Shown here piece after piece: positions 28,851 through 48,228 of a DNA stretch of 64,000 bases (position 1 is its first letter; each line of letters starts with the position of its first letter). Source of the stretch: an uncultured Gammaproteobacteria bacterium. GTDB taxonomy: Bacteria > Patescibacteriota > Microgenomatia > Levybacterales > UBA12049. The DNA lies in the NCBI GenBank assembly GCA_964416505.1, contig CAYQEJ010000001.1, forward strand, positions 1,692 through 65,691, read 5' to 3'. Position numbers and translations under genes: made by a program. The notes below the pieces were generated by a model. The model made no database searches, was not told the DNA's origin, and saw only the letters and a program-made list of their open reading frames with translations.

Positions 28851-31724
28851 TTAAAGTATTTTTTTGAGAAACGCTCCAGTGTGAGATCTTGGATTATCGG
28901 CAATTTCCCGTGGGGTTCCTGTTGCAACTATATTTCCTCCGCCTTCTCCACCTTCTGGTCCTAAATCTATTATATAATCTGCGTTTTTAATAATATCAAG
29001 GTTATGTTCAATAACGATCACGCTATTTCCAATATCTACCAATTTTCTAAGAACGTGAAGTAATTTTTCTAGATCTGCAAAATGTAATCCTGATGTTGGT
29101 TCATCCAAAAGATAGAGTGATTTCGCTCCTCTTTTGGAAAGTTCGGATGCTAATTTTACTCGCTGTGCTTCTCCTCCTGAAAGAGTTGGGGCGGGTTGAC
29201 CGAGTTTTACATATGAAAGCCCTACGTCATTTAAAGTTAAGAGTCTATTTGATAAGGAAGGAATGAAGTTGAAGAATTCTGCAGCTTCTAAAACGCTCAT
29301 ATCTAATACATCGGCAATGTTTTTTCCATTAAACATTACTTCCAATGCTTCTTTGTTATATTGCTTTCCTTCACAAACTTCGCATGTTATATAAACATCT
29401 GGTAAGAATTGCATTTCAATTTTGATTTGGCCTTCTCCCTCGCAAGCTTCACATCTTCCACCTTTTACATTGAAGGAAAATCTGCCGGGTGCATATCCTT
29501 TAAGTCTAGCGTCCTTTGTTTTTGCAAAAATATCCCTGATGTAATTAAACGATCCGGTATATGTTGCCGGATTACTCCTAGGGGTTCTTCCAATTGGAGA
29601 TTGATCAATTGAGTAAATGTGTTTTATATGCTCATATCCTTGAATACTTGTGTGTTTTCCTGGTTTTTCTCTGTGGAAAGGATCTTCTAATTGTTTTAAA
29701 CCATGGTATAAAATATCGTTAATCAAAGTTGATTTTCCGCTTCCTGAAACGCCTGTCACTACGATTAATTTTCCTAGTGGAAATTCTACATCTATATTTT
29801 TTAGATTATGCTCACTTGCTCCTCTTATGATTAGTTTTTCATTTATTCCATTTTCCATTTTTTTCTCTACTTTTATTTTTCTTTTTTTGGAAAGATATGC
29901 ACCTGTTAGGGAAGCTTCATCTTTTTTAATTTCATCTATTGTTCCTTCAAATATAATATTTCCTCCACCCTCTCCTGCCTGAGGACCAAAGTCTACAATG
30001 TAATCTGACGCTTCCATCGTCTCTTCATCATGTTCAACAACAAGAACTGTATTTCCTAAATTCTTGAGCTTTATCAAGGTTTCTATAAGTTTTTTATTAT
30101 CTCTTTGATGAAGTCCTATCGAAGGTTCATCCAAAACATATAGAACTCCAGTAAGTCCCGAGCCAATTTGAGATGCTAGCCTAATGCGTTGTGCTTCTCC
30201 TCCGGCTAAGGTATCCGCTCCACGAGAAAGAGTAAGGTAATCAAGTCCAACATTTGTTAAGAAGGTAAGACGCTGTATTATTTCTTTGAGAATTAATCTT
30301 CCGATTGTCTCTTCACGAGATGAGATGCTTGCTGGGAGTGTCTCAAAAAATTTTAGAGCTTTATCAATAGAAACATCCGAAATTTCCATGATCGACTTTC
30401 CATTTATTGTTACCATGAGTGCCTCTTTCCTAAGGCGTGAGCCTTTACAGGATGGACAGGTTTCATATTTCATGAATTTTTCAATTTGGGATTTGAAAAA
30501 AGTTGATTCTGTATTCTGATATCTATTTGTAAGTTCCTGAAGAATTCCCGGAAATTTTTCTGAAATTGTCGTATTTCTTCCCCACCTGTTTTCTCCGTGA
30601 ACAAAATATTCTCTATCCCCCGTTCCTTCTAGAAGTATTTGTTTTTTCTCAGGAGAAATTTCTGATAGCCTTTGGCTAAGTGGAATCCCATTGTTTTCAG
30701 CAAATGTCTTAAAAGTTCTAGTAAACCATGTATCATGAGATAAAAGATTTGAGAATGGAAGAACCCCACCTTCTAGAATTGTAAGATTATTATTGAATAC
30801 AAGTTCTTTATCTACTGTAAGAATGTTACCCAAGCCATCGCAGGTGGGACATGCTCCATGTGGAGTATTAAAAGAAAAGATGCGTGGTTCTACTTCTGCT
30901 ATAGAAATATTACATACAGGACAGGCAAATTTAGTGGAATATAAATTATCTTCCATTTTTTTTGGTTTATCTGGAATTTCAAATCCTGGGTCTTTAATAA
31001 TTGTTAGTATTATTTCCCCGTCACCAAATTTGAGTGCTTGTTCTACGTCACTTGATACTCTTGAGCGATCAGTTTTATCTGAGAGCATGAGCTTATCAAT
31101 TATTACTTCGATTGAGTGTTTATTAGTTTTTATAAGCACTAGATCATCAGATAAGTCAAATATATGACCATCAACTCTAACCTGCTTGTAGCCTCTTTTT
31201 CTTAAATCTTCAAAAAGATCACGATATTCACCCTTTCTGTCTTTAACCATTGGAGAAAGGATCATTGCTTTTGTTTGTTTGGAATTTTGCATTGCTGAAA
31301 AATTCATTATCATGTCTGTAATTTGATCAGGCGATACACGAGAAATTTCTCTTCCGCAGTTAGGGCAATGTGGGTGCCCTATACGAGCAAATAGAAGTCT
31401 TAAATAATCATAGATTTCAGTGACGGTTCCAACTGTTGATCTGGGATTTCTGGATGTTGATTTTTGATCAATTGAAATTGCAGGAGAGAGCCCTTCTATG
31501 AGATCCACATCTGGTTTTTTCATTACGCCTAAGAATTGTCTTGCGTAAGAAGATAGAGATTCTACATATCTTCGTTGACCTTCTGCGTAAATGGTGTCAA
31601 AGGCCAATGAAGATTTTCCACTACCTGACAGACCGGTAAAAACGACCAGTTTATTTTTAGGAATTTTAAGATCAATATTTTTGAGGTTATGCTCTCTAGC
31701 GCCTTTTACAATAATTTCGTCCAT
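28851..31724 (-). CDS. uvrA: excinuclease ABC subunit A
   Basis: Two ABC ATPase modules ('GLSGSGKSSLAFDTIYAEGQRRY', 'GVSGSGKSTL') and zinc-finger Cys clusters. 957 aa. Confidence 0.95.
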   Translation of the reverse strand: MDEIIVKGAREHNLKNIDLKIPKNKLVVFTGLSGSGKSSLAFDTIYAEGQRRYVESLSSYARQFLGVMKKPDVDLIEGLSPAISIDQKSTSRNPRSTVGTVTEIYDYLRLLFARIGHPHCPNCGREISRVSPDQITDMIMNFSAMQNSKQTKAMILSPMVKDRKGEYRDLFEDLRKRGYKQVRVDGHIFDLSDDLVLIKTNKHSIEVIIDKLMLSDKTDRSRVSSDVEQALKFGDGEIILTIIKDPGFEIPDKPKKMEDNLYSTKFACPVCNISIAEVEPRIFSFNTPHGACPTCDGLGNILTVDKELVFNNNLTILEGGVLPFSNLLSHDTWFTRTFKTFAENNGIPLSQRLSEISPEKKQILLEGTGDREYFVHGENRWGRNTTISEKFPGILQELTNRYQNTESTFFKSQIEKFMKYETCPSCKGSRLRKEALMVTINGKSIMEISDVSIDKALKFFETLPASISSREETIGRLILKEIIQRLTFLTNVGLDYLTLSRGADTLAGGEAQRIRLASQIGSGLTGVLYVLDEPSIGLHQRDNKKLIETLIKLKNLGNTVLVVEHDEETMEASDYIVDFGPQAGEGGGNIIFEGTIDEIKKDEASLTGAYLSKKRKIKVEKKMENGINEKLIIRGASEHNLKNIDVEFPLGKLIVVTGVSGSGKSTLINDILYHGLKQLEDPFHREKPGKHTSIQGYEHIKHIYSIDQSPIGRTPRSNPATYTGSFNYIRDIFAKTKDARLKGYAPGRFSFNVKGGRCEACEGEGQIKIEMQFLPDVYITCEVCEGKQYNKEALEVMFNGKNIADVLDMSVLEAAEFFNFIPSLSNRLLTLNDVGLSYVKLGQPAPTLSGGEAQRVKLASELSKRGAKSLYLLDEPTSGLHFADLEKLLHVLRKLVDIGNSVIVIEHNLDIIKNADYIIDLGPEGGEGGGNIVATGTPREIADNPRSHTGAFLKKIL

Positions 31725-31767
31725 TTTGATGAGCTACTATTATAAAGGAAATTTTTACTTATAACAA

Positions 31768-32442
31768 TCATGGACGCCAGGCTTCATAAGCATAGTAGTC
31801 TCCACTTTTTCCAACACATGCATAAGGAGTATCTTTAAGCATGTTTGCATGATGTCCTGGAGAATCAATCCAGCCTTGTACAATTTTTGTAATATCTCCA
31901 CCCATTGCTATGTTTTCTACAACCTCACGATAAGAAGGATATGGAAGTGATTTTGAATTAACTCTGTTCGAGAATCCATCATGATTAAAGCCATTTACGA
32001 TTTCACCTGCTCTTGTAATTGCGAAGCCACATGTATATGGATCCGAGGATACACTAGAAAGACCATTTGATGCCCGAAAATTATTAATTTCATTTAAAAG
32101 TTCGCTTTCCCCGCCAGAGTATGAGCTGGGAGGGTTGTTATTTGTAGAATTTTCTGATGGAGCTTTGGTCGGTTCGGGTTTTGGTGTTGGTGAAGGAGTA
32201 ATCGAGATTGGTTTGGTAGGGATAAGTGTTATAGTTCTGTTAGCAACTCTACTAGAAACTACAGAATAATTTGAAGCTTCATTTGTGTTTAGTGTGACCG
32301 TTTTTGGACTTTCAATTGTGGTTTTTTGGTAGCTATTTTTTTTCTGAATATCGAATATTAGAAGTACATCTAGAATTAATAAGCAACTTATCAAAAAGGT
32401 TCGATTGATAGTCCAAAACACACATTGATAATAACAAATCAA
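31768..32442 (-). CDS. CAP (SCP/PR-1/YkwD-like) domain secreted protein
   Basis: 'GWIDSPGHHANML' and 'NFRASNGL' are CAP-domain motifs. N-terminal hydrophobic anchor and a P/T-rich linker. Confidence 0.65.
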   Translation of the reverse strand: MICYYQCVFWTINRTFLISCLLILDVLLIFDIQKKNSYQKTTIESPKTVTLNTNEASNYSVVSSRVANRTITLIPTKPISITPSPTPKPEPTKAPSENSTNNNPPSSYSGGESELLNEINNFRASNGLSSVSSDPYTCGFAITRAGEIVNGFNHDGFSNRVNSKSLPYPSYREVVENIAMGGDITKIVQGWIDSPGHHANMLKDTPYACVGKSGDYYAYEAWRP

Positions 32443-32508
32443 TATTAATTTTCAACACCTAAAATGACATTTATAGGATTTGTTTTTAATTGATATATTT
32501 TGTGCATA

Positions 32509-32537
32509 TTGACTTGAAATTTTTCACAGCATAATAT
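32509..32537 (+). promoter_or_regulatory. sigma70 promoter of the 32780 repeat-protein gene (start of an ~235-nt leader)
   Basis: TTGACT-17-TAATAT. Confidence 0.45.
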
Positions 32538-32654
32538 CTTAAAATAATCAAAAATTCTTGATTGTCGAGTATTAACAACATAATCAAGAAAAGTTCTGAC
32601 CGCAAACGGAAGAATGAAATTAACTGTCCAAATTAATTTAGACTATTAGAGAAA

Positions 32655-32687
32655 AGCCTAGTATAGAAATATACGGGCTTTTTTTGT
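32655..32687 (+). terminator. leader-internal intrinsic terminator (GAAA tetraloop hairpin plus U7), putative attenuator
   Basis: AGCCtaGTATA-GAAA-TATACGGGCT followed by TTTTTTT, about 95 nt upstream of the SD/ATG. Confidence 0.5.
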
Positions 32688-32779
32688 GCTTTTACGGTTG
32701 CAATTGCTGATTAATTTGGAAACACCGGTTGGAAAAAGCTGCCCTTTTTCTAACCACATCATGAAAGGAGGTGAATAAA

Positions 32780-33382
32780 ATGATAAGTTATACAAAAAAA
32801 TTAGGAACAGCATTTGCTACTGCAACATTAATTGCTTCAGTATTTGCTCCTATTGCAAGCGCAGATACAAATGTTACTGTAAGCGATAATGGTCATGCTT
32901 CAAATAATACAGTTAATGTTACAAATAACAATACTGTTAACGTAACCCAATCAAACGTAATGACTGTGGGTTTGAACATAAATTCTTCTGCAAATACAGG
33001 AGGAAATAGTGCAAATGGTAACACGGGTGGAAATGTAACAATTTCTACCGGGAATGCTACAAGCAATGTAACCGTTGCTGTCGAAGGAGGATCAAACACA
33101 GCTGATCTATCAAACTGTGGATGTGGAACTACCAACGATACTGTAGAAATAAAAGATAACGGAGGCAAATCTAAGAATAAAGTTACTATAAATAACAAAA
33201 ATTCTAAGAAGGTAACTCAAACAAGCGTAGTTACTGTTTCCGCAGGTGTAAATTCTAAAGCAAAGACAGGATACAATAAAGCGAACAAAAACACTCAGGG
33301 AAATGTAAATGTCACAACTGGTGACTCTGAGTCTACTGTTGATGTTTTGGTGAGTGCACCATCTAATGATGTTAGTCTCTAA
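32780..33382 (+). CDS. secreted Asn/Thr/Gly-rich modular repeat protein (family member 1 of 4)
   Basis: Signal peptide, then repeated 'NTGGNSANGNTGGNVTISTGNATSNVTV' modules with a 'NCGCG' Cys pair. SD AAAGGAGG 7 nt upstream; the track start at 32771 is GTG. Confidence 0.55.
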   Translation: MISYTKKLGTAFATATLIASVFAPIASADTNVTVSDNGHASNNTVNVTNNNTVNVTQSNVMTVGLNINSSANTGGNSANGNTGGNVTISTGNATSNVTVAVEGGSNTADLSNCGCGTTNDTVEIKDNGGKSKNKVTINNKNSKKVTQTSVVTVSAGVNSKAKTGYNKANKNTQGNVNVTTGDSESTVDVLVSAPSNDVSL

Positions 33383-33400
33383 AAAGGGATTGCATTTTCA

Positions 33401-33430
33401 AAAACCCTGCCCTGTGCAGGGTTTTTGGGT
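33401..33430 (+). terminator. rho-independent terminator
   Basis: AAAACCCTGCcctgtGCAGGGTTTTTGGGTTTT. Confidence 0.6.
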
Positions 33431-33440
33431 TTTAAGAAGA

Positions 33441-33483
33441 TTTTGCAAAGACGAGTAGGCGTTTGAATGAAGTTCCGATTGGC
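33441..33483. repeat. 43-bp direct repeat A: displaced copy of the sortase 3' coding end (5 mismatches)
   Basis: The reverse complement encodes PIGTSFKRLLVFAK, matching the sortase C-terminus PIGTSFKRLLIFAKPV encoded at 34333..34375. Confidence 0.8.
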
Positions 33484-33594
33484 ACGCCCGCAACTGCTCG
33501 CAGTTTTGCATTTCGGGCGAGACAGTTATTAACAAAGACTTACTTTTCAGGTGAAGTAAATATTAAAATTATTTTGAATGGGGTTTCTACTCAG

Positions 33595-33632
33595 TCCTAT
33601 AGTTTGACATTTTTAGCCTCGATTGATATACT
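33595..33632 (+). promoter_or_regulatory. TCCTATAG-box consensus promoter of the cassette gene
   Basis: tcctatagtTTGACA-17nt-TATACT-11nt-ATG (33644). Confidence 0.55.
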
Positions 33633-33643
33633 TTCGGACTATT

Positions 33644-34321
33644 ATGACAAGAAAAGAAGTTTTGTCTGGAGAATCCGTTGTTGAAGGACGAGAATCAGTA
33701 CCAGATGATAGACTAATTGCCTTATGGCAAAAGTTAAATTACGGGTCTCATATAGCTGGTGAAGTTGCAAATAGAAATTTATTTACCCATGCGTTTAGGC
33801 ATTCAGGATATAGTATAGAGGGAAAAAAAGTATCAATATCTTTTGGATATAAACGACCTGGAGTCATTTATAGATTACTAGACACTTATGGATATAAATA
33901 TACTCTCAAACCAGGAGTTGTTCTTGATGCAAGACAGACTGCTGCTTTTTACCAAGGAGTTGCTGGAATAAGCATTATAGAGCAAGTAGATGAATTATCG
34001 GAGCGAAGACTAGATTTAGCTGTTAGAAGAGATGGGCAGATCATAGAATCTGCTGTCGCTGAATCTACGCATGGGTTAAGTACTCAGGGCGTAGGCTTGG
34101 TAACATCTCTATGGCAAGAAAATGATTATTATAGAGACTTGTTAGATGGAGATTGCGAAGGTAGGATAGATGCGCAAACTCATGCTTTTGTAGCAAGACG
34201 AGGTATTACGTTAAGTGAAATAGAGCCTGCGGAAAGATATTTAGGTGCGATTGTTGGATATCTCCAAGGTTTACGCCGTGGTCCTCAACCATTTTTTCCA
34301 GTATCCCCTTCTGTTAAATAA
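33644..34321 (+). CDS. hypothetical protein (cassette passenger), atypical composition
   Basis: The ORF-track start at 33623 is a TTG that overlaps the -10; the first ATG is at 33644 (MTRKEVLSGES...). No family recognised. Confidence 0.45.
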   Translation: MTRKEVLSGESVVEGRESVPDDRLIALWQKLNYGSHIAGEVANRNLFTHAFRHSGYSIEGKKVSISFGYKRPGVIYRLLDTYGYKYTLKPGVVLDARQTAAFYQGVAGISIIEQVDELSERRLDLAVRRDGQIIESAVAESTHGLSTQGVGLVTSLWQENDYYRDLLDGDCEGRIDAQTHAFVARRGITLSEIEPAERYLGAIVGYLQGLRRGPQPFFPVSPSVK

Positions 34322-34323
34322 GT

Positions 34324-34899
34324 TTACACGGGTTTTGCAAAGATTAGGAGGCGTTTGAATGAAGTTCCGATGGGCCAGCATGTTTGGATAATTAATTGAT
34401 CTTTCGTTTCTTTTAGATACTTAACTTCTGAAGGAGAAACAATTTTTTTTTCAAAAACTTTATACTTAAATTCTTTTCCGTCCTTTTTAATAATTATTTG
34501 ATCATTTTTATTTAATTCTCCAAGACGTAGGAAAATTGTATTATATCTTGTGATTTCTAAAGGATTTCCTGATGAGTGTGCAAAAACAAATATACTCCCC
34601 TTTTCTCCAGGTTTTGCTGTTCCTTTGGCTTGGGCCACACCTGTTTTTAAAACTTCCTGATAAACCTTTTCGTTAAAAGGGTCTACATCCATTTTCAATG
34701 GAGCTTGAGCATTTATTTTGGGAATCGTTATAAATGATCCATTTAGCTCATTTTGAGATTTAATTTTTGGAGGAAAAAGATAAGTAGAAATAACTGGAGT
34801 AAAAATAATAAATAGTAAGAAAAGAGATGTGATAATTAAAAAATTTCCTACATGGTAGGAAAGATTTTTTTGTTTTTTTTGAATTTTCTTCTTTTTCAC
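34324..34899 (-). CDS. sortase (transpeptidase)
   Basis: N-terminal TM, 'FVFAHSSGN' (His), 'LIIQTCWP' (TLxTC Cys) and a conserved Arg near the C-terminus. Adjacent to an LPXTG substrate. The last 14 codons coincide with direct repeat B. Confidence 0.8.
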   Translation of the reverse strand: MKKKKIQKKQKNLSYHVGNFLIITSLFLLFIIFTPVISTYLFPPKIKSQNELNGSFITIPKINAQAPLKMDVDPFNEKVYQEVLKTGVAQAKGTAKPGEKGSIFVFAHSSGNPLEITRYNTIFLRLGELNKNDQIIIKKDGKEFKYKVFEKKIVSPSEVKYLKETKDQLIIQTCWPIGTSFKRLLIFAKPV

Positions 34900-34917
34900 G
34901 AGGAGAATTCTACCAGA

Positions 34918-36024
34918 TTACCTGGCAAATAGATAGTTTGGAGATCTTCCAGACCGTAGCCGCAAGTACCCACCCATAAAAAGCATTACTATATTTCCAA
35001 TTAGTAGGAAAAGAAGAGAAAAGTTACCTGTTATTGGAAGTATTTGTCCTGTGGTAGTTCCTGCTGTAGTTCCCCCTGATCCTCCTCCGTTATTACCATT
35101 TCCATTATTGTTGTTGCCGTTGTTTGAAGATGGTGGTGGAGTTGAGTCTGGTGGATTTTTTGTCGGGTCTTCATGGCAGCAGTCAACGTCTACAATTCCT
35201 CCGTTTATGTCTTTATTATCGATGGTTGTTGTGAGATAAATATCTCCTGTATTTATGTCTACGTTCCCATTGTTGTTATTTGCGCTGTTTTTTCCAGTAT
35301 TTAAATCCCAGTTAGAATTATTTACGATATTTGCGCTACTTTCGATATTTATATTTAGTGGATTCGAGTTGCTGTAGTTAACTTGATTATCAGATTTTGC
35401 TCCGTTTCCTTTTATAACTATATACGCACTTGCCCCGCTTGGATTTCCTGCGTGAACATTATAGATATTTATTCCTGAATTATTAATTATATCTGTTACG
35501 TAAATACTTCCTGTGTTTATGCTTACATTCCCAAGATTATTATTTGCACTATTGTAGCCGGTATTTGCTTTTCCTTTTACGTTGTTAGTTATGTTTGCAT
35601 TATTTGATACGTTTACATTTGTCGTTGAATTGGAATTAAAGTTAATCGAATTATCAGAATATGTCCCATTACCGGAAATATTGAATGTTTGATCATTCGT
35701 ACAGCAACCAAGCTCAACTGAGCTTTGATTTATATTTTCATTGTTAATTTGGGAATTTACTGTTGCATTTCCGGTATTTATATTTGTTTCTCCTGAGTTA
35801 TTGTTCGCGCTGTTTCCACCAGTATTAGCGGTGGTATTTACAGTATTAGTTATATTTGCATTATTTTCTTGATTTACAGTAGTAGTTTGAGTAGACGTGA
35901 CCGAAACATTGTTATCTGCTCCAGATCCATTATTTTCAATTACAATTGTCTCTGCAAATACTTTATATGGATTTGCAAGCAAAACTACAGATAAAAGACC
36001 CAATAAAATTTTTTTGTTTAACAT
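34918..36024 (-). CDS. LPXTG-anchored Asn/Thr/Gly-rich repeat surface protein (family member 2)
   Basis: Signal peptide. C-terminus 'LPITGNFSLLFLLIGNIVMLFMGGYLRLRSGR' has LPxTG, a hydrophobic stretch and a basic tail. Cys pairs 'GCC' and 'DCCHED'. Gly/Asn-rich pre-anchor spacer. Confidence 0.7.
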   Translation of the reverse strand: MLNKKILLGLLSVVLLANPYKVFAETIVIENNGSGADNNVSVTSTQTTTVNQENNANITNTVNTTANTGGNSANNNSGETNINTGNATVNSQINNENINQSSVELGCCTNDQTFNISGNGTYSDNSINFNSNSTTNVNVSNNANITNNVKGKANTGYNSANNNLGNVSINTGSIYVTDIINNSGINIYNVHAGNPSGASAYIVIKGNGAKSDNQVNYSNSNPLNINIESSANIVNNSNWDLNTGKNSANNNNGNVDINTGDIYLTTTIDNKDINGGIVDVDCCHEDPTKNPPDSTPPPSSNNGNNNNGNGNNGGGSGGTTAGTTTGQILPITGNFSLLFLLIGNIVMLFMGGYLRLRSGRSPNYLFAR

Positions 36025-36071
36025 AACTATATTTAGGCAGGAATTTACTAAATCCGAGGCAGAGGATTTAA

Positions 36072-38246
36072 TTAGACAGATTTAACTTTAATATATAATT
36101 TTCGACTTATTATAAATATTGCTAAAACAGGTAGTGCTAAGATAGCCCATGCTAAATTGACTGTTGGTTTTCCTGAATCATTTATTCCTTTTGTAAGTGA
36201 TCCCATTATTTTTGCTGTGTTTGCTCCTGCAACTTTTATATCTACATTTGGAGTAAATCCGTTTGAAGTAAATGTTGCAACTCCACCATTTGATCCACCC
36301 ACTGCTGCCACAGTTGTTGATTTAGTTGTATTTGTGCTTTCTGTTGATGAGTTATTGTTGCTAGAGTTATTTGATCCGGTTCCGCCCTGAGCGAGCACTT
36401 CATTGTTTTCTTTATGTTCTTTTGAGCTTCCTGGAGTAATAAAGTCTCCAATCCAGCTTCCAAAAACATTTACAACAGTTACTACTAATTTTCCATTTCC
36501 TACAATATTGTTGTTTACGAAATTCACTAAGTTAGCTACGATATTTGCATCTCCAGTTGTAATATTTGAATTTCCTCCTGTGTTGTAGTTAGTGGTGTTG
36601 TTTCCTGTGTTTGCTGACAAATTGAGAGTGTTATTTATGTCTGCAGTATTTGTTTGAGTGGTCGTATTATTAACTGTAGTTGATCCGTTAGCTACGTTGG
36701 TAGAATCTGCTCCATTTCCTGAATTTGTTGCAGTTATGCTTCCGGTTACAGGATTTATTAAGAATTGGAATAGTGGAGAACCAGCGAAGTTATTTCCATC
36801 TTGAGATCCAAACAATTTTCCAACCCAGTTTCCTGCTTCGTTCACTATTACTAACCACATGGTTCCTCCCATAAGATTCATGTTTGCAATATTTAAGATG
36901 TTTGCATCAATGTTTGAAGATCCGGTAGATATATTGTTGTCTCCACCAGTATTGAATTTGGAATCATTGTTTCCTGTATTTGCATCAAGTACTAATGTGT
37001 TTGTGATGTTGGCATCATTTGATTGGAATGTGTTGTTGTTAATAGTCGAATCAGAATTTGTTGTATTGCTCGATCCTGCTCCGTTTCCTGTATTTGAAAG
37101 CATTGTTGTGTCTCCACAGCTTCCTCCACAGATTGCATCCATCATTTCTTGGGTTAATATAATGTCTCCGACTAAATTTCCAAAAATATTTACTACGCCG
37201 TAAATTACGTTGCCCGCGATATTGTTGTTGGCAAATGTAACTGCATTTGCTGAAACATTTGCGTCACCAGTAGTGATGTTTGAGTCTCCACCTGTATTAA
37301 AGCTTGCTCCGTTGTTTCCGCTATTTGATGCAAGATTTAAGTTATTCCCTACAGTTGCGCTGTTGGTTTGATTTGTGTTGTTGTTTACTGTTGAGTCATT
37401 GGTTGCTTCATTGTAGGAGAATGCTCCATTTGCATCATTTTCTAAAGCTAGGCTTTGTCCACATCCTGCGATGCATCCTGCGTTGAAGTCCAAGATTATG
37501 TCTCCTTGATGGTCGTCTACTATATTGAACTCAGCTACAGCTACTCCATCCACGTTTGTATTTACAGATGTAACTACTGTTCCAGTTGTATTTGCGTCGC
37601 CTGTTGTTATTGAAGAATTCCCTACGTTAAATGAAGAATCATTATTTCCTGTAACGGTTGAGGAATTCATATTGTTGGATACGTTTGCGCTATTTCCCTG
37701 ATTTGTATTATTGTTTGTTGTTGATGAAGAATCGCCAATATTTGTTGAACCTGCACCATTTTCTGAATTAGAAATTGAAGTGCTTCCTCCACCACAGCAT
37801 CCGCTTGATGAAGTATTATTATTTCCGGTCGTTATTATTGATGAAGAATTGCTTCCATCCCCTGTGTTTATAGATGTATCTCCAACATTTCCATTTGAAG
37901 AGGTTCCTGTTCCTGATGAAGTAGGAGTTTGAGTTGTATCTGTTGTATTTGATGAAGCTGCTGGTGTAGGAGCTGGTTTTTCTTTTGGTTTATAGTTATC
38001 TGGATTCCAGGTTGGAGCTGTTGGTGCAGTAGGTGCAGTTGGCGCTGTAGGAGCCGTAGGAGCACTTGGTGCAGTTGGCGCTGTAGGAGCAACCGGTTCT
38101 TGTGGAGCAGTAGGTTCAGGAGTAGGTTGTACGGATGATGTATCGGCTGGAGTGGATTCTTCTGCAAGAACTGCAAAAGATGTACCCATTCTTCCGAAGA
38201 GCATAATTCCTATTAATAATATTGCGATTGATTTTTTAATTTTCAT
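36072..38246 (-). CDS. large secreted Asn/Thr/Gly-rich repeat protein with Pro-rich (TAP)n linker and C-terminal TM anchor (family member 3)
   Basis: Signal peptide; 'APTAPTAPSAPTAPTAPTAPTAPTAPT'; about 8 repeat modules with CC/CG Cys pairs; C-terminus 'LAWAILALPVLAIFIISRK'. Confidence 0.6.
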   Translation of the reverse strand: MKIKKSIAILLIGIMLFGRMGTSFAVLAEESTPADTSSVQPTPEPTAPQEPVAPTAPTAPSAPTAPTAPTAPTAPTAPTWNPDNYKPKEKPAPTPAASSNTTDTTQTPTSSGTGTSSNGNVGDTSINTGDGSNSSSIITTGNNNTSSSGCCGGGSTSISNSENGAGSTNIGDSSSTTNNNTNQGNSANVSNNMNSSTVTGNNDSSFNVGNSSITTGDANTTGTVVTSVNTNVDGVAVAEFNIVDDHQGDIILDFNAGCIAGCGQSLALENDANGAFSYNEATNDSTVNNNTNQTNSATVGNNLNLASNSGNNGASFNTGGDSNITTGDANVSANAVTFANNNIAGNVIYGVVNIFGNLVGDIILTQEMMDAICGGSCGDTTMLSNTGNGAGSSNTTNSDSTINNNTFQSNDANITNTLVLDANTGNNDSKFNTGGDNNISTGSSNIDANILNIANMNLMGGTMWLVIVNEAGNWVGKLFGSQDGNNFAGSPLFQFLINPVTGSITATNSGNGADSTNVANGSTTVNNTTTQTNTADINNTLNLSANTGNNTTNYNTGGNSNITTGDANIVANLVNFVNNNIVGNGKLVVTVVNVFGSWIGDFITPGSSKEHKENNEVLAQGGTGSNNSSNNNSSTESTNTTKSTTVAAVGGSNGGVATFTSNGFTPNVDIKVAGANTAKIMGSLTKGINDSGKPTVNLAWAILALPVLAIFIISRKLYIKVKSV

Positions 38247-38351
38247 TTTTTTTATTTTTAGTTTTAATTTTAATTTTTTCCTTATTTAGTTTATGTTTGG
38301 TGGCAGGGGTTCTTGTTGAAGTGCTAACAAGAGCGCCCCTACCGCCTTACA

Positions 38352-39617
38352 TTAGAATGACATTCCGAAGAAAGCCATCATTGCTGCGAAATTGAAAGAA
38401 AAATCAACTTCTGGCATTGTTGGCCATTCCCATGTTGGCATGTCACCAACGACGTTAACGTTGCCTGAGTTCGAAACTCCTGAATTTACAGTAGCATCTC
38501 CTGTCACGATGGAAGGATCTGTTTCTGGTGTTCCAGTGTTTGAATCAGCACCGTTATAGCCGGTTTTTGCGTTTAAATCACCGAGATCATTGTAAAGACC
38601 TGCATTATTTCCTTGTCCAACAGCTTGAACGCTATCGAGATTTAAAGTAATAATGTTGTCTGCATGATTGTGGTGTTTGTAGTGATGTGATGATGCATCA
38701 GCTCCGTTTCCAGAGATTTTTGCAGTAACATCCCATACACATCCGCAGTCAACATCTGCAAAGTTGAAGTTAACTGAATTGTCAACGTCAGCATTTACAG
38801 TTGCATTTCCAGTGTCGATCATTACATCTCCACCTGTGTTGAAGTTTGCATCGTTTCCACCTGTCTTTGCGTCTGCATCGACGTCGTTAGAAACGCTTGC
38901 ATTGTTCGACTGGCCTACTGTTGTAGTTTTAGCTAAGTCAGCGGTAATATAATTATCGCTTCCTGCGCCGTTACCAGAAATGATGAAGGATGCTGATGGA
39001 TTTGATCCACCATGATTCGAGCTAACTCTTGCGGAGTTAACGTTTGCTACAGTTGAAACGCTAACGTTTGATTTAGCATTTCCAGTGACGATTGAAACAT
39101 CTCCACCTGTATTCTTATAAGCATCGTTACCACCTGTTTTTGCGTTAGCATCAACATTGTTGTTAACATTTGCGTTATTAGATTGATTTACTGCTGTAAC
39201 TGTTCCCTGATTTAACTGGACACCATTGTCAGAATAAGCTCCGTTTCCAGAGATATTAACTGTGGTATTTCCAGATTGGCAACAATTAACTTCAGCTTGG
39301 TTAGAGTTGAGAACGTTAGTCACTGTTGTATTTGTTGTAGCATTACCTGTAGAAATAGTTGTATTTCCACCGGTATTGAAATTTGCATTATTTCCGCCTG
39401 TTGAAGCGTTTGAAGTAACGTTATTGTTAACGCTAGCTGTATTGTTCTGATTTACAACTGTTGTAGTGTTTTGTGAAACATTAGCCCAATTATCAGATCC
39501 TGCTCCATTGCCGGAAATTTCGATTGTTGTACCTGCGAAAGCTACTGGTGCGAAACCATTAGCTAATATTGCTACGGTTGCAATTGCTGTACCTAATCTT
39601 TTTTTGTAATCTGTCAT
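38352..39617 (-). CDS. secreted Asn/Thr/Gly-rich repeat protein (family member 4)
   Basis: Signal peptide. About 5 modules '[I]SGNGA.SDN...NTGGN.AN.NTGG...I.TGNA' with Cys pairs 'NCCQ' and 'DCGC'. SD GGGGGTG. Confidence 0.6.
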   Translation of the reverse strand: MTDYKKRLGTAIATVAILANGFAPVAFAGTTIEISGNGAGSDNWANVSQNTTTVVNQNNTASVNNNVTSNASTGGNNANFNTGGNTTISTGNATTNTTVTNVLNSNQAEVNCCQSGNTTVNISGNGAYSDNGVQLNQGTVTAVNQSNNANVNNNVDANAKTGGNDAYKNTGGDVSIVTGNAKSNVSVSTVANVNSARVSSNHGGSNPSASFIISGNGAGSDNYITADLAKTTTVGQSNNASVSNDVDADAKTGGNDANFNTGGDVMIDTGNATVNADVDNSVNFNFADVDCGCVWDVTAKISGNGADASSHHYKHHNHADNIITLNLDSVQAVGQGNNAGLYNDLGDLNAKTGYNGADSNTGTPETDPSIVTGDATVNSGVSNSGNVNVVGDMPTWEWPTMPEVDFSFNFAAMMAFFGMSF

Positions 39618-39696
39618 AAATATTTCACCCCCTCTCTTTTATAGGATCCGCTCGCCTAGGCGAACGCACTTCTAGTTCCCGCCTGTTTTCTTTTCG

Positions 39697-39746
39697 AAAA
39701 AAAACGGAGGCCTTCCCACATCAATACTGATGTGAAAAAGCCTCCG
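39697..39746 (-). terminator. leader-internal intrinsic terminator, putative attenuator, of the 38352 gene
   Basis: Minus strand: CGGAGGC-[27-nt loop with its own hairpin]-GCCTCCG followed by TTTTTTTT, about 80 nt upstream of the ATG and downstream of TTGACA-16-TATATC. Confidence 0.5.
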
Positions 39747-39802
39747 TTTGCGGTCAGCTTGCTAGTTGTTAGTACAACGATATAACACTAAATAGCTTGT
39801 TG

Positions 39803-40018
39803 TCAATACTTAAAATTTAGGTTTATACCGGATCCTGAACCTTTTCGAATAATCGTTCCTGAAAATTGTTTTGTAGGTTTTGGAGTAAGATTAGTTTTTT
39901 TAATTATTCTTGTGGAGATTTGTGTTACTTCACCATTTTGTACGATAACTTCAACACTTCCGAAGGTGATATTATCAATTGCCTGACTGATTTCTTCAAT
40001 TATGGTTTTGTCTGCCAT
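39803..40018 (-). CDS. YezD/DUF2292-family small protein
   Basis: 'IIEEISQAIDNITFGSVEVIVQNGEVTQI' resembles B. subtilis YezD '...LKYGSVVITVHDGQVVQIE'. Confidence 0.55.
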   Translation of the reverse strand: MADKTIIEEISQAIDNITFGSVEVIVQNGEVTQISTRIIKKTNLTPKPTKQFSGTIIRKGSGSGINLNFKY

Positions 40019-40021
40019 GAA

Positions 40022-40672
40022 TTATCTTTTTAAGTCGAGCGCAACGACTTCTTTTTTACCTTGTAGTTCTCCGATTAAAAGAACAATGTTTTTATCAGTA
40101 TCATTTATAGGAAGTCCGATTCTTGTGTATTTTGTGGATTTTGCTTGGATTTGAACAGGATCATTGTGAATTTCAGGAGCTAGCTGTTCGCTTGATCCGT
40201 TGACTTTTACTCTGACATAATCCTTTGCATTTACTTCAATTGTCTTTGTATAAGGGTTTGTGATTTTAAGATTAAAAATTAAGAAAGTTCTTCCTTGAAC
40301 TGCAGTTGCCAATTTTCCTTGATAAATAAATGAATCCTGAATATTTGCAGATTCAATTAGATAAGAAATATTTGCAACTGTTTTATTTTTGTCATCTTTA
40401 AGTGGAAATTCAAATTTCTTGTTTAATTCTTGAGTTGCGATTGGACTTGGTGCTGTGGTTCTAACATCAGAACTTGAGCCTTTGAAAAATATAGCCTTAG
40501 CTAAAAGAGTACCTAATACTAAAATTACCAATACGCCAAGAATTATTAAATAGTTTTTCTTTAAAGGAAGATTGATTTTTCGGGTTGTTAAGTTCTGTCT
40601 AAAAGTTGCAGTTTTTCCCTGCACTACTTCGAAAGATCTGGTGTAATAATTTGTAAATTGTTGTCTGCTCAT
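40022..40672 (-). CDS. membrane-anchored beta-sandwich protein (DUF4352-like)
   Basis: N-terminal TM, then a soluble domain of about 150 aa. Weak resemblance only. Confidence 0.3.
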   Translation of the reverse strand: MSRQQFTNYYTRSFEVVQGKTATFRQNLTTRKINLPLKKNYLIILGVLVILVLGTLLAKAIFFKGSSSDVRTTAPSPIATQELNKKFEFPLKDDKNKTVANISYLIESANIQDSFIYQGKLATAVQGRTFLIFNLKITNPYTKTIEVNAKDYVRVKVNGSSEQLAPEIHNDPVQIQAKSTKYTRIGLPINDTDKNIVLLIGELQGKKEVVALDLKR

Positions 40673-40803
40673 TTAATAAAAAAGCCCCTAAAACGGGGCA
40701 AGTTTTTTCTTTCGAAGATATTAACAAATGAACGAAATGAATGTCAATAGGAAAATTGTAAGAATTTTCAAAGTTTAATACTCTGCTATAATGAGCTCGA
40801 AAA

Positions 40804-42276
40804 ATGATTAAAAAAATAAAAATATTTCCTATTCTATTAAGTCTAATTTTGTTTTCGGCCGTATTTATCGGGTCTCTTTTTCCTCCATCAGACCCGGATT
40901 TGGGATGGCATTTAAAATATGGTCAGTACTTTTTCGAAAATAAAAGTGTATTAAAAGATAATACTTTTTCGCGACTTATGCCGGATTATAAATGGAATAA
41001 TTCTTCTTGGGGAACAGATCTTATTACCTTTAAATCTTATGATCTAGCTGGCTTTTTAGGTATTTCAATAGTTGGCGCTTTTGTTGTTACGCTTAGCTTT
41101 TATTTTATTACAAAATCAGCAAAATATGATTTATTTGAAAAATCCATTCTTTTCCCTATTCTTCTATTTTTAACTCTTCCGGTAAATCAAGTGTCTTTTA
41201 GAGGGCAAATTTTGAGCTTACTTTTGATGTCTATGATGTATTACTTTCTAACAAAATACGAAGAAAATGATAGAAGAATTTTATTATTAATTCCTTTTTT
41301 CACTCTCTGGGCTAATTTACATGGAGAATTTGTAATGGGTCTTGGATTATTTCTTTTATGGATAATTATTTATCTTATCAAAGAGTGGTATTTAAATTAC
41401 CAGAAAAAATTTAAAGAATTGTTTGTTAATAATAAATATTTATTTTTAACTTTTTTTGGTTCAGTAATTTCTTCAGTAATTAGTCCATTTGGGATTGGAG
41501 TTTATGAAGAGTCATTTGGACATTTTAGTGATCCTTTGCAGGCATCAATCGTAGAGTTTCTCCCACCTCAATCTTTTTCTCATGTATGGTGGCATCAGTT
41601 AATTATAGGAGTTGTGATTTCAATGGGAATTGTTATGGTAGGGTTATCTAAAAAGAATTTTGATTTGGCACCTTTTTCACTCCCCTCTTTTCTCCTTTTT
41701 ATTTTCTCTCTCTGGATCAGAAGATACATTTGGCCATTTTACTATAGTGCAATCTTTCTCATAAAACCTGTAATCAGCTTTTTAAAACCTCCCAGCAGAA
41801 AACATCAAGAAATTGTTGCTTTAGCTTTAAGTCTGGTATTTTTATTTGCAACAATATATCTAAAAAAAGATACTCTTATTAAAATTAAAAATATGACCTG
41901 GGAAGATTATTGTCAGATATCAGTATCCTGTTCTGCTAAATCTGTAGAATTTATCACTAAAAATAAATTGAACAATGAAAAGCTTTTAACGATTTATGAT
42001 TATGGTGGATGGATCATTTGGAATTATCCAGAAATTAAACCTACAATTGATGGAAGAATGCATTTATGGAGAAATGAAAAAAATTATAGCGCATTTGAAT
42101 ATTACTATCCCATTGAGCAAAACGAAAAAGGAGCAGATATAAATAAAACTTCCTTTGATTCTGTTTTAACCTCCAGACAAAAACCAATTTATTTTAAGCT
42201 CAATAATCTAGTAGCACAAGGATTATGGAAAAAGGTTTATGAAGATGCTAACTCTTCTGTCTTTATTAGAAATTAA
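40804..42276 (+). CDS. large polytopic membrane protein (possible GT-C-type glycosyltransferase)
   Basis: About 11 TM segments; 'DPDLGWHLKYGQYF' periplasmic-loop motif. Confidence 0.35.
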   Translation: MIKKIKIFPILLSLILFSAVFIGSLFPPSDPDLGWHLKYGQYFFENKSVLKDNTFSRLMPDYKWNNSSWGTDLITFKSYDLAGFLGISIVGAFVVTLSFYFITKSAKYDLFEKSILFPILLFLTLPVNQVSFRGQILSLLLMSMMYYFLTKYEENDRRILLLIPFFTLWANLHGEFVMGLGLFLLWIIIYLIKEWYLNYQKKFKELFVNNKYLFLTFFGSVISSVISPFGIGVYEESFGHFSDPLQASIVEFLPPQSFSHVWWHQLIIGVVISMGIVMVGLSKKNFDLAPFSLPSFLLFIFSLWIRRYIWPFYYSAIFLIKPVISFLKPPSRKHQEIVALALSLVFLFATIYLKKDTLIKIKNMTWEDYCQISVSCSAKSVEFITKNKLNNEKLLTIYDYGGWIIWNYPEIKPTIDGRMHLWRNEKNYSAFEYYYPIEQNEKGADINKTSFDSVLTSRQKPIYFKLNNLVAQGLWKKVYEDANSSVFIRN

Positions 42277-46542: not shown

Positions 46543-46740
46543 ATGGCAAAGAATTGGAAATATATTTTATTTGTAATTTTACTTTTAATTGGAATTTATA
46601 TGCTTACCGATCATTATCCTCCACTTCCTTTTAATCATGAGCAAATGGGACTGGGTGCAAATCATATGGCTCACCGAGGAGTAGGAATATTATTTATACT
46701 TGCCTCAATTTTCGTTTTCTGGAAACGAAAAAAAGCCTAG
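46543..46740 (+). CDS. small 2-TM membrane protein
   Basis: 65 aa with two hydrophobic helices. Confidence 0.3.
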   Translation: MAKNWKYILFVILLLIGIYMLTDHYPPLPFNHEQMGLGANHMAHRGVGILFILASIFVFWKRKKA

Positions 46741-47489: not shown

Positions 47490-47576
47490 TGCGGTATTAT
47501 ACTATAAGTCTAAAATTAGTTCAAAGTTGTATTTATTTTTGAATAAGACTAAAATGATTGCGTAATTTAAAAAAAT

Positions 47577-48167: not shown

Positions 48168-48228
48168 TATTACTTTCTTCTTGCACAATTTTTAACAATT
48201 CTTAATTGCTAATCGTTAGTATGAATTT

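Follow-up and report, generated by a model that had tools for sequence, protein, structure and literature searches.

Introduction

What does a member of the Microgenomates make with four related secreted proteins encoded beside a single sortase gene? These tiny bacteria make up a large share of the CPR that has not been cultured, and next to nothing is known of their cell-surface proteins. The question is raised by a 64-kb stretch of DNA (hereafter the window, meaning the whole stretch analyzed), in which a sequence-only reading had marked positions 32509-39800 as a sortase-dependent locus with four paralogs of an unfamiliar repeat family. Sortases were near-ubiquitous in Microgenomates in a 2019 survey, the available passages of which name no sortase substrates (PMC6744442). 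In this article I argue that the locus is a new variant of the sortase-linked surface systems and that, judging from sequence and conservation, the cluster to which it belongs probably builds a major cell-surface structure.

A conserved seven-gene cluster

The cluster comprises U216, DUF2292, D, C, B (the LPxTG protein) and the sortase gene, together with a convergent A, and it is syntenic in about 80 Microgenomates loci; these were drawn from 108 matching species-level genomes, with up to 83 loci compared, and the genomes are titled Levy-, Roizman-, Gottesman-, Woese-, Ames-, Davies- and Chisholmbacteria. That the locus is such a cluster, with an RNA leader of its own, had been missed before. 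Its features in the window are as follows.

40022..40672, minus strand: U216, first cluster gene; single-pass membrane protein with one transmembrane (TM) segment
39803..40018, minus strand: DUF2292 (YezD-like), second cluster gene; 71 aa, without a signal peptide
39618..39806, minus strand: D leader, conserved and non-coding, between DUF2292 and D
39806..39777, minus strand: promoter-like TTGACA/TATCGT of the D leader (sequence reading)
39758..39740, minus strand: 19-nt motif of the D leader, GCTGACCGCAAACGGAGGC, near-invariant
39748..39695, minus strand: terminator-like hairpin of the D leader, 20 bp with a U-run (hairpin detection)
39672..39667, minus strand: GAAGTG box of the D leader (sequence reading)
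about 39634..39625, minus strand: RBS of the D leader, GAGGGGGTGA (sequence reading)
38352..39617, minus strand: D, 421 aa; signal peptide (AFA/G), then four modules as two two-module units
36072..38246, minus strand: C, 724 aa; signal peptide, Pro-rich (xAPxAP)n stretch, half-module, four enlarged modules
34918..36024, minus strand: B, 368 aa; signal peptide, three modules, Pro/Gly/Asn-rich stalk, sorting signal
34324..34899, minus strand: sortase, 191 aa; N-terminal TM segment, His in VFAHSS, Cys in LIIQTC, Arg in FKRLL
32771..33382, plus strand: A, 203 aa from GTG at 32771 or 200 aa from ATG at 32780; convergent with the D-C-B-sortase operon
32595..32686, plus strand: A leader, with a diverged copy of the 19-nt motif, TCTGACCGCAAACGGAAGA, at 32595..32613 and a separate predicted hairpin with a T-run at about 32649..32686 (RNAfold)

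The four open reading frames (ORFs) that the sequence-only reading had listed (32780..33382, 34918..36024, 36072..38246 and 38352..39617) are all present, each is preceded by an RBS, and the long antisense ORFs that it had set aside as frame artefacts are mutually similar, as expected from repeated coding. Its interval fits less well, since it leaves out the genes at 39803..40018 and 40022..40672, which are conserved and lie upstream of D, and takes in an ORF at 33623..34321 without a counterpart at the locus in any other genome compared; this ORF, which also has no paralog in the window, was rejected as a cluster member. So was a 490-aa membrane protein at 40804..42276, considered as a core member, which has the cluster as its neighbor in just 14 of the 83 loci and belongs to no Pfam family.

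Across loci the genes keep their order and the anchoring modes form a fixed set; the parts list varies, B being short and without LPxTG in several lineages and A being absent from some loci. The link to the sortase goes beyond mere adjacency: D-C-B(LPxTG)-sortase, followed by a convergent A, is the gene order in about 80 loci spanning the Microgenomates. In the 20 loci carrying all six proteins, the identity of D to its orthologs ranges from 46.8 to 65.1%, and its median of 55% compares with 51% for the sortase, 50% for C and 39% for both B and A. D is thus the most conserved protein of the cluster, above even its enzyme, which fits a structural subunit under packing constraints.

An undescribed module

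The proposal that one module is shared by the four secreted proteins is borne out by an HMM, which matches all four of them, with 13 full copies and one half copy (per-copy E 1e-21 to 1e-33), and none of the other ORFs of the 64-kb window; the model was built from these same copies, and independent support comes from homologs elsewhere, the family counting at least 2,039 representatives (50% clustering) at E<=1e-10. The copies are 23-55% identical in pairs, and their period is not the 60-70 aa first proposed: A, B and D have one of about 88 aa, and C, whose enlarged copies carry a hydrophobic hairpin insert, has one of 110-123 aa. Other family members have from 2 to about 10 or more matched stretches, the commonest arrangement being a two-module unit whose linker holds exactly two Cys.

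Searches with Pfam and NCBIfam on A-D gave only noise far below the cutoffs, leaving chaplin, S-layer (SLH) and other described surface repeats unmatched, and Pfam on 56 A-family members gave noise only. Neither single-sequence (phmmer) nor profile searches matched the module to PDB sequences, Foldseek of the models (two against the PDB, and also against BFVD) returned no match at E<=0.001, and a PADLOC search was negative for placement in a known family. The repeat had been called unrecognized, and this judgment survives the profile search, which places the module nowhere in Pfam, NCBIfam or the PDB sequences; a literature search found no description of the module family or of the RNA leader. 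The module family is a previously undescribed one, all-beta and about 88 aa in length.

The proteins and their anchors

A, B, C and D all carry Sec-type signal peptides and contain 17-23% Asn, in a genome that is AT-rich (GC about 35%), and they differ in how they may be held at the surface: for B there is LPxTG, beside the sortase gene, for C a membrane anchor at the C-terminus and for D a short hydrophobic tail only, and A is without an anchor. B has what is expected of an LPXTG-type sortase substrate, namely a signal peptide, the pentapeptide LPITG (aa 329-333, DNA 35026..35040), a hydrophobic segment, NFSLLFLLIGNIVMLFMGGYL, and the basic tail RLRSGR, so that the canonical signal reported earlier can indeed be read in its translation. 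Among B orthologs L329 is kept in 100%, P330 in 90%, T332 in 98% and G333 in 96%, and in other lineages a GL(S/A)xT(S/A)G-type signal replaces LPxTG at the same position. The 48 orthologs compared retain the three modules and the two Cys pairs (CC107-108 and CC282-283), and no Lys is conserved in at least 85% of them. A, C and D have no C-terminal sorting signal, A ending in ...SNDVSL without a hydrophobic segment and C lacking LPxTG; the label "sortase-dependent" is therefore supported by sequence for B alone.

The gene with LIIQTC beside the LPITG protein is a sortase, as had been read (Pfam PF04203, E=5.5e-24, 84.7 bits with the cutoff at 26.6; TIGR01076, 56.5 bits, above its cutoff of 39.35). 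It is syntenic with B in most loci, and 42 of 56 cluster sortases have the motif (I/L/V)(L/V)(Q/M)TC. Among PDB sequences it comes closest to class C sortases (E=4e-7), and all class-specific NCBIfam models fall below cutoff, class C (NF033745) with 66.4 bits against 160 and D, E and F likewise, so that the sortase is assigned to no class.

D, with more than 1,213 homologs, keeps a length of about 410-430 aa and its four modules; it has the Cys pairs CC112-113 and C291-G-C293, a variable His-rich loop (306-321) and a short, hydrophobic, conserved C-terminal tail (FSFNFAAMMAFFGMSF) without a basic end. The Pro-rich stalk and the C-terminal TM anchor that had been noted on one protein both belong to C, whose N-terminal Pro-rich stretch is encoded by a DNA tandem repeat (38011..38111) and whose C-terminus comprises an S/T/N-rich linker, an INLAW-type motif (VNLAW in the window), the TM segment and a basic tail; C orthologs keep these N-terminal and C-terminal features, including the INLAW motif, the TM segment and the basic tail. 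A, whose 200-aa form (ATG 32780) matches the public record P0121, has a signal peptide (ASA/D), two modules forming one unit with C116-G-C118 in the linker, and no anchor, and an A-type gene lies convergent after the sortase in most complete loci.

Of the two genes upstream of D, U216 comes first, ahead of DUF2292, in nearly all of the 83 loci; its product has a variable cytoplasmic N-terminus and a conserved ectodomain (APEIHNDPVQIQAKSTKYTR in the window). Eleven of 36 U216 orthologs match Pfam DUF4352 (PF11611) weakly (best E=4.1e-5), the window protein itself has no match, and no relatives were found among PDB sequences. The ORF at 39803..40018 matches Pfam DUF2292 (PF10055) at E=2.1e-10 with 40.4 bits, above the cutoff of 22; the gene lies between U216 and D in most loci, and its orthologs are annotated PF10055.

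Paired cysteines and a predicted long hairpin

A Cys pair had been thought to punctuate every module, and the pairs instead come mostly at every second one, after modules 1 and 3 in D and B and after module 1 in A. In C they follow the half-module (CC150-151) and modules 1 and 2 (CxxxC at 258/262 and 373/377), with none after 3 or 4. They are strongly conserved, which upholds the earlier reading on this point, the four Cys being invariant in 31 D orthologs, kept at 90% or more in the A family and at 85-98% in B. Across the family, 878 inter-module junctions have two Cys, 515 have none and 2 have one, and the Cys totals per protein are mostly even. Inspection of N-termini for CxxC, with Pfam scans covering some of the ORFs, revealed no evident thiol-disulfide oxidoreductase in the 64-kb window. 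Anoxic groundwater is the habitat of many of these organisms, a setting that makes disulfides outside the cell a less obvious solution.

Within the module, residue couplings line up as antiparallel ladders (i+j about 106 and about 20), with some 26 residues to a strand. The earlier suggestion that the repeat is "beta-solenoid-like" is accordingly not supported in the usual sense, and a canonical solenoid with 22-aa rungs was rejected, the parallel ladder at i to i+~22 being absent. Couplings and AlphaFold2 concur in predicting a long antiparallel hairpin whose conserved residues fall at alternating positions, the model of A having a pLDDT of 75.7 with a pTM of only 0.50, and that of D, built with 31 close orthologs, being too poor to use (pLDDT 58). 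Strong couplings at 8-28, 28-42, 28-64 and 64-77 misfit the extended strands of the model unless they lie between modules. In two-module units the strongest couplings run from i to i+85 and cannot be told from the similarity of the repeats, so no conclusion on packing is drawn from them, although whole 88-aa modules might conceivably stack in register. The predicted picture is one of long hairpins, each with a conserved face of Val, Ala, Asn and Gln.

What the cluster may build

I would give about an even chance to a lineage-wide cell-envelope system, in which these paralogs would form one surface structure, anchored to the wall through B and to the membrane through C, and cross-linked through the Cys pairs. 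The sortase would attach B to peptidoglycan, C would be tethered in the membrane, and free D (the major component) and A (a minor one) would bind the anchored paralogs by module-to-module beta-sheet packing, burying the conserved hairpin face of Val, Ala, Asn and Gln against a partner. The odd or incomplete sets in B (three modules) and C (which starts with a half-module), set against the complete pairs in A (two) and D (four), suggest that the unpaired modules of B and C may draw in partner modules from D or A. The assembly would then be locked by the Cys pairs, either as disulfides made by CPR MdbA/VKOR-type machinery or through a shared metal ion, and the product might be a surface layer, a sheath or a fiber. 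In Actinomyces, pilus assembly has been tied to the disulfides that MdbA/VKOR forms, as cited in the survey named above (PMC6744442). Weighing against this reading are the strong couplings that misfit the model, the low pTM for A and pLDDT for D, the negative outcome for an oxidoreductase in the window, a parts list that varies between lineages and a sortase that fits no class.

Several other readings deserve to be weighed against this one. The proteins might be four independent adhesins, separate binding proteins for, say, a host cell or a mineral, which share a repeat by descent and do not co-assemble; an attached life on hosts is generally supposed for CPR bacteria, tandem-repeat surface proteins are typical adhesins, and the variation elsewhere in the family, from 2 to about 10 or more matched stretches, is what stalk-like adhesins would show. 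However, adhesins usually diverge quickly and vary in repeat number, whereas D keeps its length, its four modules and an identity higher than that of the sortase; the gene order and anchoring set are fixed, and the semi-apolar hairpin face would need a partner, so I regard independent adhesins as unlikely. I am considerably more doubtful still of a sortase-polymerized pilus, in which a class C enzyme would join B subunits, and perhaps others, head to tail by Thr-Lys isopeptide bonds in the manner of SpaA, with the other paralogs as tip or base pilins. As in SpaA/FimA pilus islands, several related secreted proteins lie beside one sortase, and the best NCBIfam model and best PDB relatives of that sortase are class C pilus enzymes. 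Yet the score of the class C model, 66 bits, is far from its cutoff of 160, the sorting signal is confined to B, Pfam and NCBIfam find no CnaA, CnaB or other pilin domain, and there is one sortase per cluster, while pilus islands usually use a separate housekeeping sortase for wall anchoring; the absence of a conserved Lys in B, which leaves no pilin-motif nucleophile, led me to reject a Lys-isopeptide pilin role for this protein. As for the suspicion that these are low-complexity artefacts or mis-called genes, chance Asn-rich ORFs in repetitive DNA, the AT-rich genome and the long antisense ORFs might encourage it, but it deserves practically no credence and is already refuted by conservation: there are thousands of homologs with conserved length, signal peptides, Cys, Gly/Asn positions and synteny, the residue couplings are strong, an RBS stands before each ORF, and the antisense ORFs are mutually similar by-products.

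A functional amyloid or cross-beta fiber is a further reading, and one I consider decidedly improbable. Here D and A would polymerize by in-register stacking, one layer per module, with wall-anchored B as nucleator, as in curli (CsgB/CsgA), Fap and the chaplins. Curli and Fap (FapC) share with these proteins Gln/Asn/Gly/Ala-rich imperfect repeats, beta strands and a possible nucleator-plus-major-subunit logic, the composition, the TGGNxA motif and the Q/N-rich alternating strands recall CsgA repeats, and the anchored and free paralogs parallel the long and short chaplins. The top Foldseek matches are the FapC and CsgA fibrils, although not significantly so (E>=0.02, TM about 0.1), and the i to i+85 couplings would be expected from in-register stacking, although as the expected echo of repeat similarity they prove nothing. 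Against this, neither Curlin_rpt (PF07012) nor chaplin Pfam models match the four proteins or the 56 A-family members even at E<=1, the profile finds 0 matches at E<=10 among PDB sequences that include CsgA and FapC, and AlphaFold2 shows hydrogen-bonded antiparallel hairpins rather than stacked arches. Curli rungs are about 22 aa and parallel, whereas the couplings here are antiparallel with about 26 residues per strand, I know of no functional-amyloid rung that approaches a layer of 88 aa, and curli subunits are not known to have paired Cys. The cluster also has no accessory Csg or Fap genes (no CsgE/F/G-like or FapF-like export genes), a weak point given that a single-membrane bacterium would not need them.

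Relation to known surface systems

Returning to the anchored multi-paralog structure, one of its closest analogies in organization may be the chaplins of Streptomyces, of which the long ChpA-C carry a sortase signal and the short ChpD-H are secreted, with hydrophobic domains of about 40 aa and, in most short chaplins, two conserved Cys. Both are paralog families with one secreted domain, in which some members are wall-anchored and others are free and thought to assemble onto them. Unlike chaplins, the proteins here have no Pfam match and an Asn/Thr/Gly-rich module of about 88 aa, and they are encoded in a cluster that holds the sortase gene too; one of their number is anchored in the membrane, and two further conserved genes belong to the set. 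In Ena fibers of Bacillus, which are built from single DUF3992 jellyroll subunits with an N-terminal Cys-rich connector and are not known to be sortase-linked, extracellular subunits are likewise locked to their neighbors by Cys in a connector and not in the domain core, but there is no relationship in sequence or architecture.

For the Microgenomates, B offers a conserved candidate sortase substrate, complete with partners, and the cluster a seven-gene target for study, while the module family is a sizeable addition to the domains that need a name and a structure. The strictly paired Cys at fixed junctions and the near-invariant RNA motif are concrete features, either of which could open up new biochemistry: cross-links formed outside the cell by organisms whose genomes are minimal, or a cis-regulatory RNA of a new kind.

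RNA leaders

The 19-nt motif precedes D in 75 of 81 loci. In an RNAalifold consensus of 30 D leaders there are 21 pairs, 8 of them with compensatory changes, and the lower 10 bp are invariant; the hairpin at 39748..39695 has the features of an intrinsic terminator (a 20-bp stem, a T8 run and covariation support), and termination is a prediction. Rfam over 31000..41000 gave no match at gathering thresholds, and at E<=10 only generic hairpins far below threshold. A sigma-70-type site is recognizable in 19 of 72 leaders, as against 4 in shuffled controls, and the idea that a promoter always precedes the leader motif was dropped on that count.

Transcription into D might be gated or stabilized by this hairpin leader. 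The RAT/terminator attenuators of BglG, SacY and LicT, in which a protein-stabilized hairpin prevents termination, resemble it in having a conserved short stem-loop directly 5' of an intrinsic terminator, whose 5' arm it overlaps, before the regulated gene; they differ in that bglG-cis-reg scores 15 bits here against a gathering score of 80, that no PRD-type antiterminator was identified, and that the invariant stem of the small hairpin is only 3 bp. A bolder picture, which I consider a long shot, would make the cluster the principal envelope lattice or sheath of Microgenomates, the surface layer seen on ultra-small groundwater cells, with a new beta-hairpin module fold paired across subunits and locked by Cys-pair cross-links, and with a new protein-responsive attenuator RNA for which the co-conserved cytoplasmic DUF2292 protein would be the RNA-binding factor and U216 a sensor of envelope status.

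Within the 64 kb the 19-nt motif has two matches, against 0.00 expected by chance, and in window and loci alike it lies upstream of D and A and essentially nowhere else. The arrangement of the A leader also precedes A-type genes in about 7 other loci.

The gene cluster and its products

The locus encodes four secreted paralogs (A to D) sharing one Asn/Thr/Gly-rich module, together with a sortase, a single-pass membrane protein (U216) and a small PF10055 protein (DUF2292), and the four open reading frames lie exactly where the sequence-only reading had put them:

32771/32780..33382, + strand: A, secreted module protein
34324..34899, - strand: sortase, 191 aa, between A and B
34918..36024, - strand: B, secreted module protein
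36072..38246, - strand: C, secreted module protein
38352..39617, - strand: D, secreted module protein
39803..40018: DUF2292 gene (PF10055, 40.4 bits against a cutoff of 22)
40022..40672: U216, single-pass membrane protein

A to D carry Sec-type signal peptides (ending ASA|D, VFA|E, VLA|E and AFA|G) and consist of 17-23% Asn. The features that had been read by eye also held: the sortase matches Pfam PF04203 at 84.7 bits against a cutoff of 26.6, scores above the TIGR01076 cutoff and has its His, LIIQTC and Arg residues in the expected order; the C-terminus of B runs from LPITG through a hydrophobic stretch to RLRSGR; and C is Pro-rich directly after its signal peptide and closes with a transmembrane (TM) segment and a basic tail. 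The Pro-rich stretch is a tandem repeat at the DNA level too. The nearest solved relatives of the sortase are class C enzymes, although its class C score, 66 bits against 160, is too low for assignment to that class. The ectodomain of U216 bears a weak likeness to DUF4352 in 11 of 36 orthologs.

Conservation across genomes

Scanned against species-representative genomes, the D alignment returned 108 relatives, whose informative titles name Levy-, Roizman-, Gottesman-, Woese-, Ames-, Davies- and Chisholmbacteria, Microgenomates or Patescibacteria, and in a single case Nealsonbacteria. Many 'binchicken' or species-representative MAGs with the cluster (L007, L008, L010-L014 and others among the 83 loci compared here) are titled 'uncultured Gammaproteobacteria', and these titles are probably generic or wrong, because the gene order is the same as in the named Levybacteria and Microgenomates records; two of the loci (L007 and L011) contain masked N-runs. 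When the window proteins were searched against the ORFs of the 83 loci, the order almost everywhere was U216, DUF2292, D, C, B, sortase and a convergent A-type gene, and by this comparison the locus is a conserved seven-gene cluster. Its best-conserved member is D, a secreted repeat protein; such conservation is typical of structural subunits and unusual among adhesins.

Median identity to the window proteins (20 loci with all six present)
D: 55%
Sortase: 51%
C: 50%
U216: 44%
B: 39%
A: 39%

The C-termini are conserved in distinct ways. In most lineages B ends in LP[AVITRM..]TG, a TM segment and a YLR(F/L)xSGxSP tail; in Woese-, Gottesman- and Amesbacteria it is short and ends not in LPxTG but in (V/I)(L/M)GL(S/A)xT(S/A)G followed by a TM segment and basic tail (L023, L028, L032, L038, L039, L046-L049 and L075), which may be a variant sorting signal in B's position that co-varies with the cluster sortase. 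Orthologs of C always combine a Pro-rich N-terminal stretch with an 'INLAW' motif, TM segment and basic tail (window aa 690-724), and those of D always have an FSFNFAAxxAFFG-like hydrophobic end (window aa 405-421). The 'INLAW' and 'FNFAA' ends have in common an N-(L/F)-A-(W/A) core, which may serve as a further C-terminal signal distinct from LPxTG or help C and D dock to each other.

The shared module and its cysteines

Cutting the proteins at their SGNGA, TGGN and TGNA landmarks and aligning the pieces defined one module common to A, B, C and D, at 23-55% pairwise identity; the resulting HMM finds each copy at E = 1e-21 to 1e-33 and matches no other ORF of the 64-kb window. In place of the 60-70 aa that had been proposed, modules recur every 88 aa or so in A, B and D and every 110-123 aa in C, where each one holds an extra hydrophobic hairpin-like insert. 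Nor does a Cys pair punctuate every module, as had been read: Cys-pair linkers follow only modules 1 and 3 of D and B and module 1 of A, and therefore the repeat unit consists of a pair of modules joined by a Cys-pair linker. By this measure A (two copies) and D (four) are built of complete pairs, B has three modules and so one unpaired, and C, with four copies and a C-terminal half copy, begins with a half-module and CC. Module 4 of D also contains a variable insert (aa 306-321, DNA about 38655..38702) in which His, Trp and basic residues abound: the window has HHYKHHNH, and orthologs have HHSKHRRHH or WWDWWWNK. The insert is a candidate binder of metal, cell wall or membrane.

The Cys pairs themselves are strictly kept. 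None of C112, C113, C291 and C293 varies among 31 D orthologs of 53-75% identity, the A-family pair is at least 90% conserved in varying form (CxC, CCxC or CCxxxxC), and the B pairs are 85-98% conserved. Of 1,428 module junctions counted in 588 family proteins, 515 have no Cys in the linker, 878 have two and only 2 have one, and Cys totals per protein are mostly even, from which it follows that selection acts on junction-placed pairs with free spacing (0-4 residues). Such a pattern is easier to reconcile with cross-linking between partners, which would use two disulfides or one shared metal, than with a specific small loop within one chain. CPR bacteria are reported (PMC6744442) to be enriched in an MdbA-like oxidoreductase, often adjoining VKOR; on CxxC inspection of N-termini, none is evident in the window.

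Profile searches place the module in no described family. A to D match nothing in Pfam or NCBIfam, Pfam gives only noise on 56 A-family members, neither phmmer nor a 73-sequence profile has a match at E<=10 in the PDB sequences, and literature searches returned no description of the module. Foldseek of the AlphaFold2 model of A likewise yields no match at E<=0.001 in PDB or BFVD; TM-scores are about 0.1 in PDB and at most 0.23 in BFVD. The nominal top matches (FapC fibrils, CsgA fibrils and beta-helices) most likely reflect local strand and composition likeness only. The module family thus appears to be new. It is also large: when 1.84 billion cluster representatives were searched exhaustively with HMMER, 2,039 proteins matched at E<=1e-10 and 1,104 at E<=1e-30, with lengths of 285-926 aa and up to 10 matched stretches among the matches listed. 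Full-length homologs of D number more than 1,213; none has a name beyond 'hypothetical', and the organism labels that a few of them carry read Levybacteria or Patescibacteria. As an observation the sequence-only reading was therefore right in everything except module size and Cys periodicity, and its interpretation is supported, since placement in a known family and loss of the Cys pairs among homologs were both looked for and neither was borne out.

A beta-solenoid-like architecture had been suggested. Mean-field direct-coupling analysis of 1,921 distinct module copies (effective number about 1,640) gives one long antiparallel ladder (i+j about 105-108, from pair 24-81 to pair 49-57) with the NTGG motif at its tip, a short N-terminal hairpin (3-16, 5-16, 3-18) and a GNG loop in contact with the NTGG tip. 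AlphaFold2, given 73 diverse sequences for A, returns an all-beta model (pLDDT 75.7, about 80 in the mature part; pTM 0.50; five models in agreement) in which a 31-residue strand pairs with a broken return strand, in agreement with the coupling layout. Because the layout is antiparallel and a parallel i to i+~22 ladder is absent from the couplings, a conventional short-rung solenoid is not supported. Conserved residues alternate on both strands (V26, Q28, N30, A32, V34, N36, V38, A40, A42 and their partners), and the predicted hairpin ribbon therefore has a single conserved semi-apolar face that must be buried. Couplings 8-28, 28-42, 28-64, 64-77 and 45-77, impossible within a single straight hairpin, would mean either a hairpin folded back on itself or inter-module contacts, and the i to i+85 couplings that dominate a two-module analysis are expected equally if they stem from repeat similarity or from modules packed face to face or in register.

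How the system may work

Taking together the clustered genes, common modules, complementary anchoring modes, strict Cys pairs and conserved B signal beside a conserved sortase, I propose that the sortase would link B to peptidoglycan and C would be tethered in the membrane, that D as the major and A as the minor subunit would join them through pairing of the conserved hairpin faces, and that the Cys pairs would fix the assembled proteins as a layer, sheath or fibre. Support is good for the anchoring part; the composite of anchoring, co-assembly and Cys-pair locking I regard as evenly balanced between right and wrong. That the anchored proteins B and C carry unpaired modules and the free proteins A and D complete pairs points to the same co-assembly. 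The lack of a conserved lysine makes B an unlikely Lys-isopeptide pilin. The system is an uncharacterised, lineage-wide variant of sortase-linked surface systems with a new module family and a conserved RNA element; it is not, as far as shown here, a new kind of biology, and it offers a well-defined and testable starting point for studying the envelope in a major uncultured group.

A conserved RNA leader

The leader between DUF2292 and D (39618..39806, - strand) holds a 20-bp hairpin followed by T8 (39748..39695) and, at the same place in 75 of 81 loci, the near-invariant 19-mer GCTGACCGCAAACGGAGGC, whose 3' half doubles as the hairpin's 5' arm; 3' of the motif come a variable-sequence stem, GCCTCCG and a U-run, and then a conserved GAAGTG box and the ribosome-binding site GGAGGTGAA. 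Among 30 aligned leaders, compensatory changes occur at 8 of 21 pairs, all in the upper stem, and the lower 10 bp never vary. In the 5' motif CCG and CGG are invariant around four bases (CAAA, TAAA, CCAA, CGAA or TACA), so that CCG-NNNN-CGG fits a small stem-loop overlapping the terminator arm. No Rfam family matches the leader.

A diverged motif copy lies upstream of A (32595..32613, in a leader at 32595..32686, + strand), followed by a separate hairpin with a T-run; the two matches in 64 kb compare with 0.00 expected. In about seven other loci from several lineages (L008, L009, L026, L038, L046, L047 and L055), a copy of the motif stands upstream of, or adjacent to, an A-type gene, a hint that both transcription units share one cis element. 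The strict pattern is essentially absent elsewhere in the loci. The design resembles RAT/terminator attenuators; however, only 19 of 72 leaders have a recognisable promoter upstream of the motif (4 in shuffled controls), and with promoters so sparse it is just as possible that the element controls read-through, or that it is no more than a conserved terminator separating DUF2292 from D. The leader core ACCGCAAACGGAG is similar to the DNA encoding the SGNG(A) motif of the module, TCCGGAAACGGAG... (e.g. L009 8094 and 8358), a likeness that is probably coincidence; the terminator 3' arm could in principle pair with the repeated SGNG(A) coding segments.

Neighbouring genes and inserts

The surroundings of the cluster contain several further genes:

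27021..28850, - strand: transglutaminase-like core protein, 609 aa, likely secreted (PF01841, E=4e-18)
31768..32442, - strand: CAP/YkwD-domain protein, 224 aa, likely secreted (PF00188, E=1.5e-9)
33623/33644..34321, + strand: insert ORF, 225-232 aa
40804..42276, + strand: multi-pass membrane protein, 490 aa, no Pfam family, divergent from U216

The convergent A and sortase genes are separated in the window by a 940-bp insert (33383..34323), compared with about 60 bp in L002. Its GC content is higher (up to 0.43), with strong G-skew, and it holds a near-consensus promoter (TTGACA-17-TATACT with TG, 33604..33632). The insert ORF matches nothing in Pfam, NCBIfam or PADLOC; it lacks a counterpart in any of the 83 loci and a paralog in the window. 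An identical protein was called in one other sequencing run, adjoining a 77-aa contig-end gene fragment at the place where the window has its sortase.

Many window ORFs, for example 529..942, 1021..1704, 2549..2998, 5125..5460, 7991..8449, 43769..45767, 46737..51741 and 54458..55594, have Arg/Gly/Pro/Glu-rich N-termini, as against the Lys/Ile/Asn-rich proteins typical of this 35%-GC genome; they are not paralogs of each other and may be real genes, foreign DNA or antisense artefacts. Homologs of the 490-aa protein adjoin the cluster only among close relatives (14 of 83 loci), which makes this protein a lineage-restricted neighbour and not a core member. Transglutaminase-like domains are associated with protein cross-linking or protease activity, and a CAP homolog lies near the cluster in five loci.
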